Shown: positions 10,944 through 47,224 of the stretch, in pieces
How the letters are laid out: each line of letters opens with the position of its first letter
Position numbering within the stretch: the stretch's first letter is position 1
From: Bacillota bacterium
GTDB lineage: Bacteria > Bacillota_I > Bacilli_A > RF39 > UBA660
Direction: 5' to 3'
NCBI GenBank assembly: GCA_003524085.1
Contig: DOEC01000006.1
Coordinates: 1,146 to 65,145 of the forward strand
Length of the DNA: 64,000 nt
Translations under genes and position numbers: made by a program
Notes under the pieces: generated by a model
What the model was told of the DNA's origin: nothing
The model's input: the letters and a program-made list of their open reading frames with translations, nothing else
Databases searched by the model: none

Positions 10944-11852
10944 CTAACTAATTTGCACAGTTTTATTTATTTTAAATTCTACTATAGTTACTTGATTATC
11001 TTTTACGTAATGAGCTTCAAACTTATTTACTGACTTTGTTATAATTATTCCAATAGTACTATTTTGAGTTATATTTTTTAAGTGTTCGTCAATATAGTTC
11101 ATATACGTTTTTATTTGACCATAGTCACTTTTCTTATATTCTCTTGATTTTATCTCTACTACACAATATCTACTTTCAACCACATTATAAAATAGATAGT
11201 CTATATAATTCTTTTTGTCTCCAATGTTAAGTTTATATTCTCTTCCGACGTAAAAATATCCACCGCCTAATTGTTTCATAAAACTATCTAAGTTTTCATA
11301 AATAATTTCTTGTAATATTTTTTCAGTATAAACTTCATAACTTTTATTAGGTGTTAACACTATTGGACTGGGGACACTTTGAATTAAAGAAAGTTCTTCT
11401 TTATTTAAAAGACTTTCTTTTGCTTCAGTTGAGAGTCTACCATACTCATTACTCTTTATTCTTTCAGCTAATGCTCTTTTACTTAAATTATCTCGTTTAG
11501 TAATATGAATATAATACTTAATTTCTTTGATATCTCTTAGTGATAATAAAATCTTGTAATGACTCCACGTCAATTGTCGCTCCAGTGGAGCGACTTTTTG
11601 AATTAATAAATAAAATTGTTGTATCTTATATAAATCTTTTTCCTTATATCCACTTCCAAATTCCTTAGTTAAAATACTTGCATATTTTTTTACTATTCCT
11701 TCTCCATAGTGTTTACCTGCTTCTACTAGTTCCCTTCCTATATTATAATTCATTGTAAGTTTTACATTATTTATCTGATAATTCTTAGCTACTACTTTAG
11801 CATTTCCATTTATTATTTCAGTCTTTATATTACTTAAATATTCGTCTATCAT
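10944..11852 (-). CDS. DUF1016/YhcG-family PD-(D/E)XK nuclease-domain protein, array copy 1
   Basis: 302 aa. YhcG-N pattern (NYNIGRELVEAGKHYGEGI, EFGSGY, LTWSHYKILL). C-terminal IDYLFYN...VVEIK nuclease core and GQIKTYMNYID. Confidence 0.8.
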   Translation of the reverse strand: MIDEYLSNIKTEIINGNAKVVAKNYQINNVKLTMNYNIGRELVEAGKHYGEGIVKKYASILTKEFGSGYKEKDLYKIQQFYLLIQKVAPLERQLTWSHYKILLSLRDIKEIKYYIHITKRDNLSKRALAERIKSNEYGRLSTEAKESLLNKEELSLIQSVPSPIVLTPNKSYEVYTEKILQEIIYENLDSFMKQLGGGYFYVGREYKLNIGDKKNYIDYLFYNVVESRYCVVEIKSREYKKSDYGQIKTYMNYIDEHLKNITQNSTIGIIITKSVNKFEAHYVKDNQVTIVEFKINKTVQIS

Positions 11853-11864
11853 AAATTTTCCCTC

Positions 11865-12773
11865 CTAACTAATTTGCACAGTTTTGTTTATTTTAAATTC
11901 TACTATAGTTACTTGATTATCTTTTACATAATGTGCTTCAAACTTGTTTACTGATTTTGTTATAATTATTCCAATAGTATTATTTTGAGTTATATTTTTT
12001 AAGTGTTCGTCAATGTAGTTCATATACGTTTTTATTTGACCATAATCGCTTTTTCTATATTCTCTTGCTTTTATTTCAACTACACAATATCTACTGTCAA
12101 CTACATTATAAAATAGATAATCTATATAATTCTTTTTGTCTCCAATGTTAAGTTTATATTCCCTACCAATAAAAGCGTAGCCTCCACCAAGTTGATGCAT
12201 AAAATCTTCTATATTTTCAAAGATTATTTCTTGTAATATTTTTTCAGTATAAACTTTATAACTTTTATTAGATGTCAACACTATTGGACTTGGGACACTT
12301 TGAATTAAAGAAAGTTCTTCTTTATTTAAAAGACTTTCTTTTGTTCCATCTGAAAGTCTATCATACTCATCACTTCTTATTATTTCAGCTAATTTTCTAT
12401 AACTTAAATTATCTCTTATAGAAATATTAGTATAATAATTGATTTTATTGATATCTTTTAAAGGTAAAAGTAATCTTATGTGTTCCCAAGTCAATTGGTG
12501 CGGCAATGCCGCACCTTTTTCAAAAAGAACATAAAATTGACGCATTCTCTTTAAATTAGATACAGAATATCCACTTCCAAATTCCTTAGTTAAAATACTT
12601 GCATATTTTTTTACTATTCCTTCTCCATAGTGTTTACCTGCTTCTACTAGTTTCCTTCCTATATTATAATTCATTGTAAGTTTTACATTATTTATCTGAT
12701 AATTCTTAGCTGCTACTTTAGCATTTCCATTTATTATTTCAGTCTTTATATTACTTAAATATTCGTCTATCAT
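11865..12773 (-). CDS. DUF1016/YhcG-family PD-(D/E)XK nuclease-domain protein, array copy 2
   Basis: 302 aa paralog. A 12-nt gap with TAG-GAGGG stop/RBS overlap separates it from its neighbours. Confidence 0.8.
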   Translation of the reverse strand: MIDEYLSNIKTEIINGNAKVAAKNYQINNVKLTMNYNIGRKLVEAGKHYGEGIVKKYASILTKEFGSGYSVSNLKRMRQFYVLFEKGAALPHQLTWEHIRLLLPLKDINKINYYTNISIRDNLSYRKLAEIIRSDEYDRLSDGTKESLLNKEELSLIQSVPSPIVLTSNKSYKVYTEKILQEIIFENIEDFMHQLGGGYAFIGREYKLNIGDKKNYIDYLFYNVVDSRYCVVEIKAREYRKSDYGQIKTYMNYIDEHLKNITQNNTIGIIITKSVNKFEAHYVKDNQVTIVEFKINKTVQIS

Positions 12774-12785
12774 AAATTTTCCCTC

Positions 12786-13694
12786 CTAACTAATTTGCAC
12801 AGTTTTGTTTATTTTAAATCCTACTATAGTTACTTGATTATCTTTTACATAATGAGCTTCAAACTTATTTACTGATTTTGTTATAATTATTCCAATAGTA
12901 CTATTTTGAGTTATAGTTTTCAAGTGTTCGTCAATGTAGTTCATATACGTTTTTATTTGGCCATAATCGCTTTTCTTATACTCTCTTACTTTTATTTCAA
13001 CTACACAAAAACAGTTCATTTTGTAATTGTATAAAAGATAGTCTATATAATTCTTTTTATCTCCAATATTGAGTTTATATTCTCTACCAATAAAAGAGTA
13101 TTCTCCACCAAGTTGATGCATAAAATCTTCTATATTTTCAAATATTATTTCTTGTAATATCTTCTCATTATAAAATTCATAGCTTTTATTTGGTGTCAAT
13201 ACTATCGGACTGGGTATGCTTTGAATTATTGAAAGCTCTTCTTTGTTTAAAATACCCTCTTTCGTTTCAGTTGAAAGTCTGCCATACTCATTACTTCTTA
13301 TTCTTTCAGCCAATGCTCTTTTGCTTAAATTATCTCGTTTAGTAATACTAATATAATACTTGATTTCTTCTACATTTTTTAATGGTAAAAGTAATTTATA
13401 ATGAGACCAAGTCAAAAGTTGCCCCACTGGAGCAACTTTTTGACTTAAATCATAAAATTGCTTCATTCTTGTTAATTCTGTAAAAGTATATCCCTTACCA
13501 AATTCTACCGTTAATTCCTTTGCATATTTTTTTACTATTCCTTCTCCATAATGTTTACCAGCTTCTGCTAGTTCCTTACCAATATTATAGTTCATTGTAA
13601 GTTTTACATTGTTTATCTGATAATTTTTAGCTATTACTTTAGCATTACCATTTATTATTTCATTCTTTATATTTTCTAAATAATTGTCTATCAT
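12786..13694 (-). CDS. DUF1016/YhcG-family PD-(D/E)XK nuclease-domain protein, array copy 3 (first in the operon)
   Basis: 302 aa paralog. Same termini as the other copies, with divergent blocks at residues ~60-100 and around the nuclease core (IDYLLYNYKMNCFCVVEIK). Confidence 0.8.
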   Translation of the reverse strand: MIDNYLENIKNEIINGNAKVIAKNYQINNVKLTMNYNIGKELAEAGKHYGEGIVKKYAKELTVEFGKGYTFTELTRMKQFYDLSQKVAPVGQLLTWSHYKLLLPLKNVEEIKYYISITKRDNLSKRALAERIRSNEYGRLSTETKEGILNKEELSIIQSIPSPIVLTPNKSYEFYNEKILQEIIFENIEDFMHQLGGEYSFIGREYKLNIGDKKNYIDYLLYNYKMNCFCVVEIKVREYKKSDYGQIKTYMNYIDEHLKTITQNSTIGIIITKSVNKFEAHYVKDNQVTIVGFKINKTVQIS

Positions 13695-34657: not shown

Positions 34658-34684
34658 TAATGCGAACAAAGGATGGTGTTTGTC

Positions 34685-35929
34685 ATGGAAGAAAGAAATA
34701 TTTTATGTATTGATTTAAAGAGTTTTTTTGCTTCAGTTGAATGTATTGAAAGAAATTTAGACCCGTTTACTACTCCCTTAATTGTTGCTGATCCATCTAG
34801 AAAAGGTGGGGCGATTACTCTTGCAGTTACTCCATATATGAAAACTCTTGGTGTACCTTCTCGTGGAAGAGTTTTTGAGATACCTAAAGGAATTAAATAT
34901 ATTACAGCTACTCCTAGAATGAGTTTGTATGTTAAGAAAAGTAAAGAAGTTATTAATTGTTTTTTAGATTTTGTAAGTAAAGAAGATATGCATGTGTACT
35001 CTATAGACGAAGCGTTTTTAGATGTTACTGATTATTTAAAGTTATATAAGATGGATGATGTTACTTTAGCTAAAAACATAATGGCTAGAATTAAAGAGAA
35101 GACAGGACTTACTAGTACGTGTGGAATTGGGCCCAACTTACTTCTTGCTAAGGTTGCACTTGATATTGAGAGTAAACATAGTCCTGACTTTATCGCTAAG
35201 TGGACTTATGAAGATGTGAAGACTAAGTTATGGAATATAACACCATTAGACGAGATGTGGGGAATTGGATCTAAAACTATGAAAAAACTAAATGATCTAG
35301 GAATATATAAGGTTGGAGATATTAATAAGTATGGTAAAGAGTTTTATAAGAAAAGATTTGGTGTGTTAGGCGAAGAGTTGTATTTGCACGCGAATGGGAT
35401 AGATTATAGTAATATTAAAAATGATAGATATGAAGTTAAAAATAAAAGTTATGGACTTAGTCAGATATTATATAAAGATTATACTCCTAGTGAAGTTATT
35501 TTAATTGTTAAAGAGATGTGTGAGACCGCTACTAAAAGACTTAGAAGTAATAAAAAAGCATGCGAAGTAGTTGGTTTTGGTATTGGATACTCTAGAAGTG
35601 TTGGTGGTGGGTTTTATCATTCTAAGAAGTTATCTTCTCCTACTGATAAAGATAGCGTTATTTATGAAGTGTGCAAAAGTATACTTGATGCGTATATTGA
35701 AGAACTTCCTATTAGAAAGGTAAGTATTTCTCTTGGTAAATTAAGTGATAATAATTATGTACAGTTAAATTTATTTGATACAAACGAAGAAAGTTATGAT
35801 GAGACTATGAAAACAATTGACGAGATAACTAAGAGATTTGGGGATAATGCTATTTTAAAAGCGTCTAGTTTACTTGATTATAGTACAATTAAAATGCGTA
35901 ATAAGAAGATGGGTGGACATAATAAGTAA
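34685..35929 (+). CDS. Y-family DNA polymerase (DinB/UvrX/YqjW-like translesion polymerase)
   Basis: Track ORF 34673..35929. ILCIDLKSFFASVEC, YSIDEAFLDVT and the HhH WGIGSKTMKKL are present. Confidence 0.9.
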   Translation: MEERNILCIDLKSFFASVECIERNLDPFTTPLIVADPSRKGGAITLAVTPYMKTLGVPSRGRVFEIPKGIKYITATPRMSLYVKKSKEVINCFLDFVSKEDMHVYSIDEAFLDVTDYLKLYKMDDVTLAKNIMARIKEKTGLTSTCGIGPNLLLAKVALDIESKHSPDFIAKWTYEDVKTKLWNITPLDEMWGIGSKTMKKLNDLGIYKVGDINKYGKEFYKKRFGVLGEELYLHANGIDYSNIKNDRYEVKNKSYGLSQILYKDYTPSEVILIVKEMCETATKRLRSNKKACEVVGFGIGYSRSVGGGFYHSKKLSSPTDKDSVIYEVCKSILDAYIEELPIRKVSISLGKLSDNNYVQLNLFDTNEESYDETMKTIDEITKRFGDNAILKASSLLDYSTIKMRNKKMGGHNK

Positions 35930-35939
35930 TGGTGATATT

Positions 35940-36245
35940 ATGTATAGAAAAATGATTAAATGGAAACCATTTAATACCTTACTTAAGTATAAAGATATTT
36001 TAGAAATTGATAAAAATAGACAGTTAGTTGATAAGCCTGTTATTATGGAAGACAGGATATATGAAATTAATGATGTGTTAAAGAGTGTGAATTCTTCTAC
36101 TTTAGTTAGAGTAAAATATTTTAATAAAGGAATGCTATTATATAAAGAAGGATATGTTAGTAAAATTGATACAATAGAAAAATATATTCTAATAGATAGA
36201 TTTAGAATATATTTTAGGGAACTTATTAAAATTGAAGTTATTTAG
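35940..36245 (+). CDS. YolD-like protein (UmuD-position partner of the Y-family polymerase)
   Basis: Track ORF 35874..36245, with the start moved to MYRKMIKWKPFNTL. ~100 aa, located immediately downstream of the polymerase as in uvrX-yolD and yqjW-yqjX pairs. Confidence 0.6.
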   Translation: MYRKMIKWKPFNTLLKYKDILEIDKNRQLVDKPVIMEDRIYEINDVLKSVNSSTLVRVKYFNKGMLLYKEGYVSKIDTIEKYILIDRFRIYFRELIKIEVI

Positions 36246-36759
36246 TTAATGAATGTACGACCATGTTGTCTTGATATTCTACTAAGTCTGGATATATTTT
36301 AAATAGAGTGTCTAAATCTTTCTTCTCTACTACTCTGTGTCCTAGAGTGTTAAAGTGAGTGGGATTTCCCATTACTGCTAGTGAAGTATCTATTACTACT
36401 TTCTTGTTATTAAGTACTGTTTCTACTACCCAGTGGCCGCCGAAAGAGCTACCCTCCGTACCTTTGAAGTGTGGGTTTACTACGTACACGGCTTCACTAT
36501 ATATTCCAAGTTTATCTAGTAAAAGAACAAGTTCATATGAACAGGTTTTGCATCTTCCACCAGTTAAGCCTAGTCTAAAAAGGTCAATAAATGCAAGAGG
36601 GCCATACCCAGTTATTCTAATTGGTGTTTTGTCTTTTGAAATTATATCCCATAAAAGCTCGTCAAACTCAGTTAGTTTGTTTTTACTATAAAGTTCATTA
36701 AATACTTTTTTAAATTCTTTATTGTTTCTTAATAACTCTTCTCTAAATACATTTTTCAT
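36238..36759 (-). CDS. Hypothetical protein, possibly transglutaminase-like Cys-His-Asp fold
   Basis: 173 aa. Candidate triad contexts are GGRCKTCS, GGHWVVE and VVIDTS. The assignment is weak. Confidence 0.35.
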   Translation of the reverse strand: MKNVFREELLRNNKEFKKVFNELYSKNKLTEFDELLWDIISKDKTPIRITGYGPLAFIDLFRLGLTGGRCKTCSYELVLLLDKLGIYSEAVYVVNPHFKGTEGSSFGGHWVVETVLNNKKVVIDTSLAVMGNPTHFNTLGHRVVEKKDLDTLFKIYPDLVEYQDNMVVHSLTK

Positions 36760-36793
36760 TTGTTTTCTCCTAGAAATATTGTATCAATAAATT

Positions 36794-37102
36794 CTATAGT
36801 TTTAAAGTCTTTTCTTTACCTTTAATGATAATGTTGTTATTTTGTGTAAATGACATGTCATATTCCTTAAAGTTTATCTTATCTAAAATTTGTTTTGGAA
36901 TTTTTATTTTGTTACCTACTTTTTCAACACTATAAGTATTTGCTAGTATTATTCTATAAACTTTTCTATTTTGACTAGTCATACTTAAATTTATGTTTTG
37001 TTTTAAGTTTGAAAGGATAAGAGTGTTTTCGTCTATCAAAGTAATGGATGTGAAATTTAAGTTTTCTGGTATTATCAAAAAATTATTTTTTATTTCAAAC
37101 AT
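36794..37102 (-). CDS. Hypothetical protein (102 aa)
   Basis: ORF track plus a GGGGGC RBS and a consensus promoter. Confidence 0.5.
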   Translation of the reverse strand: MFEIKNNFLIIPENLNFTSITLIDENTLILSNLKQNINLSMTSQNRKVYRIILANTYSVEKVGNKIKIPKQILDKINFKEYDMSFTQNNNIIIKGKEKTLKL

Positions 37103-37156: not shown

Positions 37157-37220
37157 AAATTTGTGCTTTTATTTTTTAGGGTTAATTGATATAATTATAA
37201 TAGGTAAAGGTAGGGATTAT

Positions 37221-39230
37221 ATGGACAACGTTTTAAGTGAACTAGTGAAAAAACTAGAAAAAGGAGAAAGTGTAAGTAATTTAGTCAGTGAATTTAAAAT
37301 CAGTGAGTTTGAGCTTTTTGGTTATGTAAGAAAGTTAAAGGAAACTGGTATTAATGTTATTAGGACTGAAAAGAATAATGAAGTTAGACTAATAATTAAT
37401 CACCATCCTGATTATACAAAAGAAAATGTATATAATATTAATGTGGACGTAAACTTGAATACTAAGTTTGCTGTTATAAGTGATACTAGATTTGGTTCAA
37501 CAAACGAGCAAATTGCTATTTTAAATGACTTATATAAAAAGTTTTTAGAGTGTGGTGTTACATATGTAATTGTAGCAGGAAATTTACTTGAAGGCGAATA
37601 TAAAAACAACGATGTTTATGAATATGGTAAAAGTTTAATTAGTAATACTAGTATTGGGCAAGCTAATCATTTATTAGAGTTTTATCCTAAGGTAACTGGT
37701 ATTACTACTCTTTTTATTACAGGAAAAACTGACCATACTTGGAGTAAAGAGTTAAATGTTGGAGAATATATTAGTAGTAACAGAGATGATTTAATTTATT
37801 TAGGGCCTAAAAGTGCAACTATTAATTTTAATAAAGTTATGTTTAGGGTTGAGAATTTGAAAAAGCAAGGAGAAAGCTATACTATCGCATATCCACCACA
37901 GAAGTATTCTAGAAGTATGCCTAGTTATGAAGATTATGACGCGATATTTTTAGGTGGCACATTGACTGCACAGGAGTTTCCCACAATTAGAGATACTAAG
38001 ATGTTTGCAATACCTTCTGTAGTTGCTAGAACTCCAAAGATGAGAAATTTAAGTCAACAAAATACTATAGGTGCGTATGTTTTTGATATTAGTTATACTA
38101 AAAATGGAAAATTAAAGAGTATGAAGTCTACACTTATTCCCTACTACGTTCCTAGTAAAGAAAACTATATTACAATAAAGCCTCTTATAATAAGTGATAG
38201 TAAAGATAATGTTAAAGTTAAGCCTGTTAAAGATAATATGACTAGTATGTTAGATAGAATATATAGAAATATTAAGAAGGAAGAGAGTTTTAGTGATTTG
38301 ATGAATAGACTTTCAATTAATGAAAATGAACTTTATGGCGTGATTGACCTACTTCAAGAAAGAGGAAGAGATATTGGTATTAGTGAAATTGATGGGGTTC
38401 TTGTCGTTAGAAAAAATGTTAAAAAAATTAGAAAGACTGAGATAAAGCTACCTAAAGAAGAATTACATAAAAAGGTGTTTCTAGTTGTAAGTGATACGCA
38501 TTACGGAAGTATTTATAGTCAGCCTTCTATGGTAAATACATCTGTTTATGAAGCTTATAACCGTGGAATTACTGATATATTTCATGTTGGAGATATTACT
38601 GATGGAGATTATAGTAGAATTAGGCCAATACATAATTATGAAGTGTTTTTATATGGTGCGACTGGACAGCTTGAGTACACCTTAAATACTTTGCCTAAGT
38701 TTCCTGGAATGAAGTGGCACATTATTACTGGAAGTCATGATCAAACTCACCTATTTAATTATGGAGTCGATATTGGAAAAGAATTAGAAAAAAGAAGAGA
38801 CGATATTGAGTTTCTTGGGCAAGACAGAGGCTTTTATTATTTTGACAACTGCAAGATGGAGCTATTTCATCCAGGTGGTGGGACAAGCAGAATACTTTCT
38901 ACAAAGCCACAGAACGGAATTGATCAGATACCAAGTCATACTAAACCTAAAATCAGTTTAAGAGGACATTACCACAAGTCTTATTATATGTTTTATAGAA
39001 ATGTTCACACTTTCTTGTGTCCATGTAATGTTGATACATCTTCATTTATGATGAAAAATGAGATACCTAATTTGATGGGAAATTATTTCATTACTATTTG
39101 GTATGACGATAATGGAGATATTGAATATTTAGAAACTGAACCTATGATTTTTACTAATGAAGATGTGACTTACAGAGATTTTGAAAATCCTAAAAAGTTT
39201 ATAAAAAGCAAAATTAATAAAAAAATTTAA
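37221..39230 (+). CDS. Tandem-duplicated wHTH-metallophosphoesterase protein (degenerate first unit, intact second unit)
   Basis: Track ORF 37161..39230, with the start moved to MDNVLSEL (RBS AAAGGTAGGG). Unit 2 has DTHYGS, VGDITDGD, GSHDQ, FHPGGG and RGHYH. Unit 1 has DTRFGS, AGNLLEGE and TGKTDH at the aligned positions. Confidence 0.7.
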   Translation: MDNVLSELVKKLEKGESVSNLVSEFKISEFELFGYVRKLKETGINVIRTEKNNEVRLIINHHPDYTKENVYNINVDVNLNTKFAVISDTRFGSTNEQIAILNDLYKKFLECGVTYVIVAGNLLEGEYKNNDVYEYGKSLISNTSIGQANHLLEFYPKVTGITTLFITGKTDHTWSKELNVGEYISSNRDDLIYLGPKSATINFNKVMFRVENLKKQGESYTIAYPPQKYSRSMPSYEDYDAIFLGGTLTAQEFPTIRDTKMFAIPSVVARTPKMRNLSQQNTIGAYVFDISYTKNGKLKSMKSTLIPYYVPSKENYITIKPLIISDSKDNVKVKPVKDNMTSMLDRIYRNIKKEESFSDLMNRLSINENELYGVIDLLQERGRDIGISEIDGVLVVRKNVKKIRKTEIKLPKEELHKKVFLVVSDTHYGSIYSQPSMVNTSVYEAYNRGITDIFHVGDITDGDYSRIRPIHNYEVFLYGATGQLEYTLNTLPKFPGMKWHIITGSHDQTHLFNYGVDIGKELEKRRDDIEFLGQDRGFYYFDNCKMELFHPGGGTSRILSTKPQNGIDQIPSHTKPKISLRGHYHKSYYMFYRNVHTFLCPCNVDTSSFMMKNEIPNLMGNYFITIWYDDNGDIEYLETEPMIFTNEDVTYRDFENPKKFIKSKINKKI

Positions 39231-39248: not shown

Positions 39249-39278
39249 TTGACATAGGCACTAATTTTATGGTACACT
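39249..39278 (+). promoter_or_regulatory. tRNA-Ala promoter
   Basis: TTGACA (39249-39254), 18 nt, TACACT (39273-39278) preceded by TGG. It has the same -10 context as the tRNA-array promoter. Confidence 0.55.
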
Positions 39279-39310: not shown

Positions 39311-39387
39311 GGGGAATTAGCTCAGTTGGCTAGAGCACCTGCCTTGCACGCAGGGGGTCGCGGGTTCAAGTCCCACATTCTCCACCA
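39311..39387 (+). tRNA. tRNA-Ala (anticodon UGC)
   Basis: GGGGAATTAGCTCAGTTGG...CCTTGCACGCAGG...TTCAAGTCCCACATTCTCCACCA. The G3:U70 identity pair is present and CCA is encoded. Confidence 0.95.
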
Positions 39388-39401
39388 AATATATCTATAG
39401 A

Positions 39402-39428
39402 AGTCCTTTTTTCTAAGGACTTTTTTTG
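39402..39428 (+). terminator. Rho-independent terminator after tRNA-Ala
   Basis: Stem AGTCCTT / AAGGACT followed by a T7 run. Confidence 0.8.
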
Positions 39429-46130: not shown

Positions 46131-46207
46131 TGGTCGGGAAGACAGGATTTGAACCTGCAACCACTCGGTCCCAAACCGAGTGCTCTACCAAGTTGAGCCA
46201 CTTCCCG
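46131..46207 (-). tRNA. tRNA-Pro (UGG)
   Basis: The reverse complement gives CGGGAAGTGGCTCAACTTGG...CTCGGTTTGGGACCGAG...CCA. Confidence 0.95.
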
Positions 46208-46212
46208 ATAAA

Positions 46213-46289
46213 TGGCGTCCCCAAGAGGAGTCGAACCCCTAACCTTTTGATCCGTAGTCAAACGCTCTATCCAGTTGAGCTATGAGGAC
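46213..46289 (-). tRNA. tRNA-Arg (ACG)
   Basis: The anticodon loop on the minus strand is CTACGGA. Cloverleaf and CCA are present. Confidence 0.9.
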
Positions 46290-46332
46290 AGCCTGTCCAA
46301 AATATATATAAGCTCCGGCTGGCTTTTAAAAA

Positions 46333-46408
46333 TGGTGGCTTCAGTTGGAATCGAACCAACGACACCAAGATTTTCAGTCTTGTGCTCTGCCAACTGAGCT
46401 ATGAAGCC
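46333..46408 (-). tRNA. tRNA-Phe (GAA)
   Basis: GGCTTCATAGCTCAGTTGG...CAAGACTGAAAATCTTG...CCA. Confidence 0.95.
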
Positions 46409-46412
46409 ACAA

Positions 46413-46488
46413 TGGCGGTTCCGACGGGAATTGAACCCGCGATCCCTCGCGTGACAGGCGAGTGTGATAACCGCTACACCACGGAACC
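46413..46488 (-). tRNA. tRNA-Asp (GUC)
   Basis: GGTTCCGTGGTGTAGCGG...CTCGCCTGTCACGCGAG...CCA. Confidence 0.95.
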
Positions 46489-46495
46489 TTATTTT

Positions 46496-46572
<77 letters not shown>

Positions 46573-46590
46573 ATGTTAGTTTTTTAATTT

Positions 46591-46683
46591 TGGCGGAGGA
46601 AAAGGGATTTGAACCCCTGCGCCGCTTTCACGACCTCCTGGTTTTCAAGACCAGTCCCTTCAGCCAGACTTGGGTATTCCTCC
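46591..46683 (-). tRNA. tRNA-Ser (UGA), long variable arm
   Basis: GGAGGAATACCCAAGTCTGG...CTGGTCTTGAAAACCAG...CCA. 93 nt. Confidence 0.9.
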
Positions 46684-46690
46684 AACAAGA

Positions 46691-46779
46691 TGGTGCCTCG
46701 GGCCGGACTTGAACCGGCACGGTATTTAACTACCGAGGGATTTTAAGTCCCTTGCGTCTACCAATTTCGCCACCGAGGC
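46691..46779 (-). tRNA. tRNA-Leu (UAA), long variable arm
   Basis: GCCTCGGTGGCGAAATTGG...AGGGACTTAAAATCCCT...CCA. 89 nt. Confidence 0.9.
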
Positions 46780-46803
46780 GTGTCACAATTTTTTATTAAA
46801 AAA

Positions 46804-46879
46804 TGGTGACCCGCTGGAGATTCGAACTCCAGACCCCTTGATTAAAAGTCAAGTGCTCTACCGGCTGAGCTAGCGGGTC
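46804..46879 (-). tRNA. tRNA-Lys (UUU)
   Basis: GACCCGCTAGCTCAGCCGG...CTTGACTTTTAATCAAG...CCA. Confidence 0.95.
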
Positions 46880-46891
46880 AATATTATAAAT

Positions 46892-46967
46892 TGGTTGCCT
46901 CGGCGGGATTCGAACCAGCGAAATGCACGAGTCAAAGTCGTGTGCCTTACCACTTGGCTACGAGGCA
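46892..46967 (-). tRNA. tRNA-Gln (UUG)
   Basis: TGCCTCGTAGCCAAGTGG...CACGACTTTGACTCGTG...CCA. Confidence 0.9.
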
Positions 46968-46974
46968 ATCTAAG

Positions 46975-47058
46975 TGGTGGAGAGACATGGATTCGAACCA
47001 TGGAACCCGAAGGAACAGATTTACAGTCTGCCGCGTTTAGCCTCTTCGCTATCTCTCC
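46975..47058 (-). tRNA. tRNA-Tyr (GUA), long variable arm
   Basis: GGAGAGATAGCGAAGAGG...CAGACTGTAAATCTG...CCA. 84 nt. Confidence 0.9.
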
Positions 47059-47065
47059 AAAAAAA

Positions 47066-47141
<76 letters not shown>

Positions 47142-47147
47142 AAATTA

Positions 47148-47224
47148 TGGTGGGCGACGAGAGACTCGAACTCCCGACCTCCTGCTTGTAAGGCAGATGC
47201 TCTAACCAACTGAGCTAGTCGCCC
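47148..47224 (-). tRNA. tRNA-Val (UAC)
   Basis: GGGCGACTAGCTCAGTTGG...CTGCCTTACAAGCAG...CCA. It is the first gene of the array. Confidence 0.95.

Follow-up and report, generated by a model that had tools for sequence, protein, structure and literature searches.

The gene and its domain architecture

The window, that is, the whole stretch of DNA analysed here, consists of 64,000 nucleotides of a Bacillota bacterium (GenBank assembly GCA_003524085.1, contig DOEC01000006.1, positions 1,146 to 65,145 of the forward strand). At 37221-39230 it carries a plus-strand gene for a protein of 669 amino acid residues, in which a winged helix-turn-helix (wHTH) domain followed by a metallophosphoesterase (MPE) domain occurs twice, the catalytic site being degenerate, or dead, in the first unit (N unit) and intact, or live, in the second (C unit). 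The protein represents an undescribed family and architecture within the MPE superfamily, and its units are akin to DP1, the proofreading subunit of PolD.

The gene lies within the single long plus-strand open reading frame (ORF) of the ORF list, 37161..39230. Its start is placed at the ATG at 37221 because the Shine-Dalgarno-like AAAGGTAGGGA precedes this codon and the N-terminus of a 669-residue database protein, P0001 (99% identical), coincides with it; both agree with the coordinates given in an earlier, sequence-only reading of this DNA. The features of the gene are as follows.

37206..37216, plus strand: Shine-Dalgarno-like AAAGGTAGGGA, 5-15 nucleotides 5' of the ATG, read from the sequence
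37221..39230, plus strand: whole coding sequence, 669 amino acids and a stop codon, fused [wHTH-MPE(dead)]-[wHTH-MPE(live)], from the ORF list, the self-alignment, full-length homologs and the AF2 model
37221..37400, plus strand: N-unit wHTH, residues 1-60 (model H2-14, H18-25, H29-41, E46-51, E54-59), aligning to the second wHTH
37422..38195, plus strand: N-unit degenerate (dead) MPE domain, residues 68-325
37482..37490, plus strand: degenerate motif I, D88-T-R90, the His of DxH replaced by Arg; SD[TLI]R in most N-type units, fused or split
38196..38234, plus strand: inter-unit linker, residues 326-338, pLDDT below 50 at 328-337, corresponding to the gene boundary in split relatives
38235..38414, plus strand: C-unit wHTH, residues 339-398 (model H339-350, H357-364, H368-380, E385-390, E393-398)
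38463..39185, plus strand: C-unit intact (live) MPE domain, residues 415-655, with Metallophos_2 at 421-591 and invariant catalytic residues
38493..38501, plus strand: motif I, D425-T-H427, invariant in 30 homologs
38589..38594, plus strand: motif II, G457-D458, invariant
38730..38741, plus strand: motif III, G504-S-H506-D507; G, H and D invariant, second position S, N, G or Q
38868..38870, plus strand: motif IV, H550 (H-P-G-G), invariant
38964..38975, plus strand: motif V, G582-H-Y-H585; H585 invariant, the next segment giving the best DP1 alignment

The AF2 model of the protein (pLDDT 86.6, pTM 0.80) has the order wHTH, sandwich, disordered linker, wHTH and sandwich, and the two-layer β-sandwich flanked by helices is present. 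In distant homologs the region equivalent to the C-unit wHTH is matched by HTH_11, HTH_24 and TrmB models.

Duplication and the dead and live units

The two units are homologous to each other from the first wHTH helix to the last strand, because the profile of the N-type units (n = 33) and that of the C-type units (n = 116) align by hhalign with a probability of 100% and an E-value of 1.3e-82 over 315 columns, which span the wHTH, the phosphoesterase and the C-terminal β part. The duplication, already noticed in the sequence-only reading, is also significant within the single protein: residues 1-352 and 353-669 align by BLASTP with an E-value of 8e-20 and 24% identity over about 298 residues.

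Five motifs characterize the metallophosphoesterases (Pfam PF00149 / PF12850), namely DxH, GD, GNH[D/E], H and GHxH, and all of them are present in the C unit, with Ser for the Asn of motif III, but not in the N unit. Invariance of the motifs was judged in an alignment of 30 fused homologs reaching down to 21% identity. In the C unit, D425, H427, G457, D458, G504, H506, D507, H550 and H585 are invariant in 30/30 homologs, whereas no catalytic residue is among the positions that are invariant in the N unit (G120, G125, Q147, P156, G168, R188, D190, P265 and G284). The motif table gives the same picture, that is, C-type units retain DxH, GD, G[S/N]HD, HPGG and G[H/N]xH, and the N unit of the window protein has D88-T-R90, G120-N and G168-K-T-D-H and no motif V. 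The N unit is degenerate in every homolog, with SD[T/L]R, GN and no His-Asp pair, and motif V is missing in the window clade. The claim that only the second half keeps the metal motifs, the first having DTR, GN and GKTDH and lacking the last motif, therefore holds in the motif table and across the 30 homologs, and motif III was correctly written as G[N/S]HD, the window clade having the Ser form (GSHD). The replacement of His by Arg in motif I is a hallmark of the dead paralog.

Judging from these motifs, only the C unit is predicted to bind two catalytic metals. Its H506 is the counterpart of the proton donors of DP1 (H451) and Mre11 (H85). The Asn of motif III is kept in DP1 and in the consensus of 98 family sequences, mostly single-unit proteins, and S505 of the window protein hints at a possibly altered metal site in the paired forms. 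Among relatives, identity is 59-86% in the dead domain, 67-94% in the live domain and 37-68% in the wHTH domains. Such values argue that the dead N unit is itself under strong purifying selection, and the invariant motifs of the C unit, set against the free decay of their N-unit counterparts, show that the C unit has been selected for catalysis.

Kinship to the PolD subunit DP1

DP1 is the Mre11-like two-metal nuclease which acts as the 3'-5' proofreading exonuclease of PolD (PMC4996933). Comparison with solved structures, by structure and by profile, gave the following results.

Foldseek against PDB: top ten matches all DP1, E 5e-9 to 7e-8; next SapH (3qfn), 1.8e-7
12-sequence profile against PDB sequences: DP1 entries only, E 2.8e-4 to 5.7e-3; next none
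98-sequence profile against PDB sequences: six of six DP1 sequences, E 1.2e-11 to 1.2e-8; next MJ0936 0.004, Mre11 0.24 and SbcD 0.26

By these three independent methods both units are closest to the DP1 exonuclease, and no solved structure other than those of DP1 (PDB 5IHE, 6KNB, 8PPT) is matched significantly by sequence (profile E = 1.2e-11 for DP1). The match of the 98-sequence profile consists of two collinear stretches, one covering motifs I-III and the other motif V and the following strands, and a non-catalytic segment after motif V is common to both (family consensus FQxQTxFMxxK, DP1 WQAQTEFQK). The phosphoesterase domain is thus specifically of the DP1 type, and the MPE domains of both units are assigned to the DP1/Mre11 (nuclease) branch. 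With the N-type profile alone, DP1 is the sole phosphoesterase match in PDB, at a non-significant level (E 0.12-0.89). The link to the PolD proofreading subunit is unexpected, and by its statistics it is solid.

Family databases gave generic matches. Metallophos_2 matches 95 of 98 family members at E ≤ 0.05, and homologs pass the Metallophos models, P0124 for example with 46.1/44.5 bits. PF04042 (DNA_pol_E_B) is matched only by the N half, at 12.8-13.4 bits against a gathering threshold of 29.1 (E 0.05-0.08), and it is not among the common Pfam matches of the 98 family members, which are generic Metallophos. The NCBIfam search of the window protein gave only noise, the single-sequence PDB search no match and PADLOC-DB no defence-system match. 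Among distant relatives, PADLOC gave a generic HTH (CasR/Csa3) and a weak match of the phosphoesterase region of P0128 to PDC-S10 (E 2.4e-4). PHROG gave weak matches to "DNA repair exonuclease" and SbcD-like families, and the plasmid search no matches. Therefore, as the sequence-only reading had supposed, the doubled wHTH-MPE architecture fits no described family: no Pfam, NCBIfam, PHROG or PADLOC family describes the fused protein, and full-text literature searches gave no description of this architecture or of a bacterial DP1-like family. The structure and profile searches and the inspection of homolog neighbourhoods that the same reading had proposed assigned the protein to no characterized family, leaving DP1 as the nearest solved relative and no conserved partner.

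DP1 and the C unit have all five phosphoesterase motifs in common, including the proton-donor His, which in DP1 is His451, the His of GNHD (PMC4996933). However, DP1 contains an OB domain (residues 249-338) inserted near the N-terminus of its phosphoesterase domain (PMC4996933), while the window protein has no OB fold and a wHTH precedes its phosphoesterase instead. In addition, the window protein is a duplicated dead and live protein of a bacterial and viral family, whereas DP1 is an archaeal replisome component. As for the polymerase partner DP2, there is no ORF of more than about 690 amino acids in the window, and no polymerase gene is a conserved neighbour in the loci examined. To our knowledge, no DP2 polymerase partner is known in bacteria. 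The window protein was consequently rejected as a DP1 ortholog, on account of the missing OB insertion, the PF04042 score below threshold and the lack of anything like DP2 in the window and the loci examined.

The structural matches also include inactive members of the fold, namely the B-subunits of Pol α, δ and ε, Vps29 and GAP50. The eukaryotic B-subunits are inactivated relatives of DP1 used as scaffolds (PMC4996933), and, like the N unit, they have lost the catalytic residues and kept the domain as a structural subunit. Unlike the N unit, which pairs with a live paralog, they have an OB domain and bind the C-terminal zinc-finger domain of a polymerase, and they show no specific sequence similarity to the window protein beyond the weak DNA_pol_E_B match. 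A winged helix is also found beside such a subunit in the Pol δ structure 3E0J, which we take to be the B-subunit p50 with the winged-helix domain of p66.

Mre11/SbcD are likewise nuclease-type metallophosphoesterases, with the same motifs and catalytic His as the C unit. The interface of their dimers forms a DNA-binding surface. However, Mre11 dimers are symmetric with two live sites, whereas the window protein has one, and the capping domain of Mre11/SbcD is missing from it. Neither the window nor any of about 30 cellular loci has an SMC-like ATPase (Rad50/SbcC) gene next to the MPE gene. Membership in Mre11/SbcD was rejected because of the lack of a Rad50/SbcC neighbour and a capping domain and because of the poor sequence match (E only 0.24-0.26). 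Membership in the class III cyclic nucleoside monophosphate (cNMP) phosphodiesterases was also considered and rejected.

Fused, split and single-unit forms

A HMMER scan of 1.84 billion cluster representatives gave 1,905 relatives at E ≤ 1e-3, counted as cluster representatives at 50% identity. They occur in three forms: fused proteins of about 680 amino acids, split pairs of a dead and a live gene, and live single units of 300-470 amino acids. Fused proteins of about 680 amino acids, 60-99% identical to the window protein, are found in many uncultured Bacilli, and more divergent ones of 740-820 amino acids have an N-terminal extension, one of them being annotated from a Patescibacteria metagenome-assembled genome (MAG).

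Split pairs occur in four independent groups of loci (L023, L027-29, L092-93 and L094-95), always with the dead gene first. A gene of about 330 codons with little or no Pfam signal lies directly 5' of a live gene of about the same size, the two being separated by a gap of 1-10 nucleotides or overlapping by one base. In L023 the upstream gene (331 amino acids) abuts a live gene of 324 amino acids, and its match to the N half of the window protein (E = 3e-66, 36% identity) is much stronger than that to the C half (E = 3e-36), so the window gene is a fusion product of such a pair of neighbouring paralogs, the dead and the live gene. The disordered linker (residues 328-337) marks the former gene boundary. 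All dead units, fused or split (33/33), form one clade in a neighbour-joining tree, a method which may group fast-evolving sequences artificially, and for the most part the N and C halves of the RF39-like forms have their orthologs in the respective halves of the Patescibacteria forms; because of these two observations, the dead paralog most likely arose once.

Dead and live units stand together, neighbouring or fused, in every cellular locus examined. The settings of these loci vary with the lineage: in one there are RpoC and ClpC-like genes upstream and TilS and FtsH downstream, in another HisRS upstream and a WYL regulator downstream of the pair, and the Patescibacteria locus has Lon and MltG as neighbours. 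No conserved partner gene was found in 22 genome loci, where synteny is kept only among the closest relatives, and the same is true of the Patescibacteria locus. In one lineage only (L094 7065-7664, L095 3408-4007) a gene for an HTH_11-WYL regulator is located directly 3' of the split pair; WYL regulators often control DNA-damage or defence genes. In one cellular locus a XerD-like recombinase gene adjoins the pair.

The live single unit was found in 57 IMG/VR viral loci by two strict peptide patterns, and each of the viral copies examined consists of one live unit with no dead partner. Typically the genes for SSB and a DNA methylase precede them and those for the terminase, portal and capsid follow directly downstream, and one is in a module with the Sak annealase and RusA. 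In contrast to this wide occurrence in uncultured viruses, tblastn of the C half, P0128 and P0173 against 50,697 phage and virus genomes matched only Halorubrum tailed virus BLv36, a cultured virus, whose ORF43 (L026 5749-6909), annotated as "hypothetical protein", lies between portal and capsid genes. ORF43 also has annotated relatives in Halomarina rubra and a Nanohaloarchaea MAG, which extends the live single unit to haloarchaea and the family to both prokaryotic domains. The ancestral form would be the live single unit common in uncultured tailed viruses. Both this form and the origin by fusion of a gene pair are new with respect to the sequence-only reading.

In some of the viral loci (L037, L042, L065, L079, L081, L082, L085 and others) a conserved unannotated gene of about 135 codons is located between the live unit and the large terminase, and it is possibly a small terminase. 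Some viral copies have an extra N-terminal HTH of the small-terminase kind (HTH_23, HTH_28, Terminase_5, Sigma70_r4, GcrA). The viral single unit may have a part in DNA maturation or packaging.

In function, the nearest precedent for the viral single units is gp47 of mycobacteriophage Bxb1, a recombination directionality factor located with replication genes. This DP1/Mre11-like phosphoesterase is needed by the phage to replicate its DNA and shows limited 3' exonuclease activity in vitro (PMC11795197). Unlike the window protein, gp47 has neither a wHTH nor a duplication, and no sequence link to it was found in the indirect tblastn of the C half, P0128 and P0173 described above.

Chromosomal setting in the window

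The window (guanine + cytosine content, 28%) contains genes for a penicillin-binding protein, transketolase, ProRS, a cluster of 12 tRNAs, an AMP-binding (DltA-like) protein and an MBOAT (DltB-like) protein, and looks like the ordinary chromosome of a cell-walled bacterium of low guanine + cytosine content. The closest genome records are MAGs of uncultured Bacilli, "Tenericutes" and "Clostridium sp. CAG:628". Around the wHTH-MPE gene are those for ProRS, VanY and a CofD-family (YvcK-like) protein; a prophage location was rejected since phage genes are absent nearby. The sequence-only reading had described a gene standing alone on the plus strand and followed by tRNA-Ala, and this is indeed so, as the genes flanking 37221-39230 on both sides are on the minus strand and ARAGORN finds the tRNA downstream.

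39249-39278: promoter-like site near tRNA-Ala
39311..39387, plus strand: tRNA-Ala(UGC), by ARAGORN, downstream neighbour of the wHTH-MPE gene, a functional link between them not being shown
39399-39424: terminator-like hairpin near tRNA-Ala

About 1 kb upstream of the wHTH-MPE gene, at 34673-36245 on the plus strand, there are a gene for a translesion polymerase of the Y family (IMS) and, after it, a YolD-like gene. These neighbours suggest a DNA-damage context; outside the closest relatives (clusters 1 and 13) the polymerase gene is no longer linked to the wHTH-MPE gene. Between them, at 36238-37102 on the minus strand and divergent from the wHTH-MPE gene, two small ORFs (173 and 102 amino acids) without a Pfam match are preceded by a promoter-like sequence (37156->37127) with a perfect TTGACA-18-TATAAT and an extended TG, and both are syntenic with the wHTH-MPE gene in the five closest loci.

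Farther away on the minus strand, 46131-47224 holds 12 closely clustered tRNA genes (Pro, Arg, Phe, Asp, Met, Ser, Leu, Lys, Gln, Tyr, Thr and Val), and 10944-13694 contains three tandem paralogs of 302 amino acids (10944-11852, 11865-12773 and 12786-13694), of which the first and the third are 81% identical. The first has DUF1016_N and a YhcG PDDEXK nuclease domain. Such a triplicated putative nuclease gene is unusual for a small genome, and a DUF1016/YhcG gene is also close to the split pair in L094/L095.

A predicted nuclease with a structural dead partner

The main reading is that the window protein is a DNA nuclease with a structural dead partner, in which the two units form an asymmetric pseudo-dimer with one active site, and its probability is put at about 0.5. 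A nucleic-acid substrate is favoured because both units are closest to the DP1 exonuclease. The genes beside the viral copies (SSB, Sak annealase, RusA and DNA methylase) and the weak PHROG exonuclease matches are also a context of the nuclease type. The activity, the DNA substrate, the heterodimer-like packing and the cellular role are what we infer from these features.

The mechanism proposed would be as follows. The two units would pack within one chain as an obligate asymmetric dimer with a single active site. The C unit, having a full two-metal site with H506, would cleave DNA phosphodiester bonds by analogy with DP1, Mre11 and gp47, as a 3'-5' exonuclease and/or a single-strand endonuclease. 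The N unit would be an obligatory structural partner which shapes the substrate surface or docks another protein, as can be imagined from Mre11 dimers and the B-subunits, and the conserved Asp-x-Arg of its dead motif I may fill the lost metal site through a salt bridge. Such a structural role is at least as likely as that of the "regulatory pseudo-subunit" suggested in the sequence-only reading. The two winged helices would hold DNA or a protein partner. The viral single live unit, which sits between replication or recombination genes and packaging genes, probably serves replication, recombination or DNA maturation as a homodimer, and Bacilli (including RF39-like ones) and Patescibacteria would keep the dead and live pair as a chromosomal gene, presumably for replication, repair or recombination. 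A specific polymerase-associated proofreading role is considered doubtful.

Several points weigh against this reading. The Metallophos_2 score of the window protein is 22.4 bits, below the Pfam gathering cut-off of 27, and the top rank of DP1 may be due partly to the small number of solved structures in this part of the superfamily. In the RF39-like and the split-pair cellular forms, Ser (S505 of the window protein, 38733-38735) takes the place of the Asn that is the usual metal ligand in motif III, so the metal site of the C unit may be atypical. The wHTH domains have a net charge of 0 (N unit) and -2 (second wHTH), that is, they are not basic, and they are the least conserved parts of the protein (37-68% identity); neutral or acidic and poorly conserved wHTH domains fit protein binding better than DNA binding, so docking of a protein would be at least as likely as DNA binding. 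The wHTH domains named in the sequence-only reading are thus present in both units, and it is their "DNA-binding" label that is insecure. Moreover, the packing of the units is known only from the summary confidence of the model (pTM 0.80), no polymerase, SbcC/Rad50 or clamp gene is a conserved neighbour in the cellular loci examined, and the activity and substrate of every family member are predicted ones.

Alternative explanations

The gene might be a domesticated or resident gene of a mobile element with a virus-related job, such as a packaging (cos-site) or replication-module nuclease, exclusion or anti-defence, so that the cellular copies would not be core housekeeping genes. The 57 viral contigs, in which the genes for the small and large terminase, portal and capsid typically follow the live unit directly, the family member ORF43 of BLv36, the extra small-terminase-type HTH of some viral copies and the XerD-like recombinase of one cellular locus are all what such an origin would leave. 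However, the cellular genes are among ordinary chromosomal genes without phage genes nearby, each cellular locus examined has both the dead and the live unit against single live units in the viral copies examined, and there are no plasmid matches and no defence-system model. In addition, identity of 60-99% over many MAG species despite changing neighbours argues for vertical inheritance under purifying selection. This explanation is therefore regarded as unlikely.

A quite unlikely explanation is a phosphodiesterase of small molecules or signalling nucleotides coupled to a transcription factor, in which the wHTH would bind an operator and the dead unit would sense a ligand. It agrees with the HTH_11/ArsR/TrmB-type wHTH typical of regulators, with the automatic annotation of homologs as "biotin operon repressor / predicted phosphodiesterase" and with the similarity to MJ0936, and a dead paralogous site could well serve as a ligand sensor; but DP1, a nuclease, is alone in giving a specific sequence signal, no cyclase or effector gene and no regulated operon is conserved beside the family genes, the net charge of the wHTH domains is zero or negative, and PADLOC gave no signalling-system match beyond a generic HTH. 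Of the two kinds of enzyme left side by side in the sequence-only reading, nucleic-acid and signalling-nucleotide processing, the former is thus favoured by the DP1 kinship found with three methods and the latter is less favoured.

That the protein is a non-nuclease scaffold like Vps29 or the polymerase B-subunits, the "live" site being vestigial or a structural metal binder, is very unlikely, since in spite of the inactive fold members among the structural matches and the replacement of Asn by Ser in motif III, the C unit has nine residues in its catalytic motifs that do not vary even in homologs of 21% identity, and the corresponding N-unit positions have decayed freely.

Implications for the family and its hosts

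DP1 and its dead eukaryotic descendants have been described as parts of archaeal and eukaryotic replisomes (PMC4996933). A DP1-like family in bacteria, archaea and viruses offers an outgroup for the origin of the PolD exonuclease. As a bolder and rather improbable proposal, the family would be the sister group, in bacteria and viruses, of the phosphoesterases of DP1 and the B-subunits, the PolD proofreading subunit, and by way of it the eukaryotic B-subunits, would be derived from, or have originated together with, a widespread virus-borne winged-helix nuclease, and the dead and live pair would be a polymerase-associated or repair 3'-5' exonuclease of reduced-genome bacteria (RF39-like Bacilli and Patescibacteria), its inactive subunit having evolved in parallel with the B-subunits. 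The dead and live pair, both split and fused, offers a clear example from nature of a pseudoenzyme retained as the presumably obligate partner of its active paralog. Furthermore, the family is strongly conserved in abundant, uncultured gut Bacilli, and about 1,900 cluster representatives are annotated no further than "metallophosphoesterase", so a defined activity would annotate thousands of genes.

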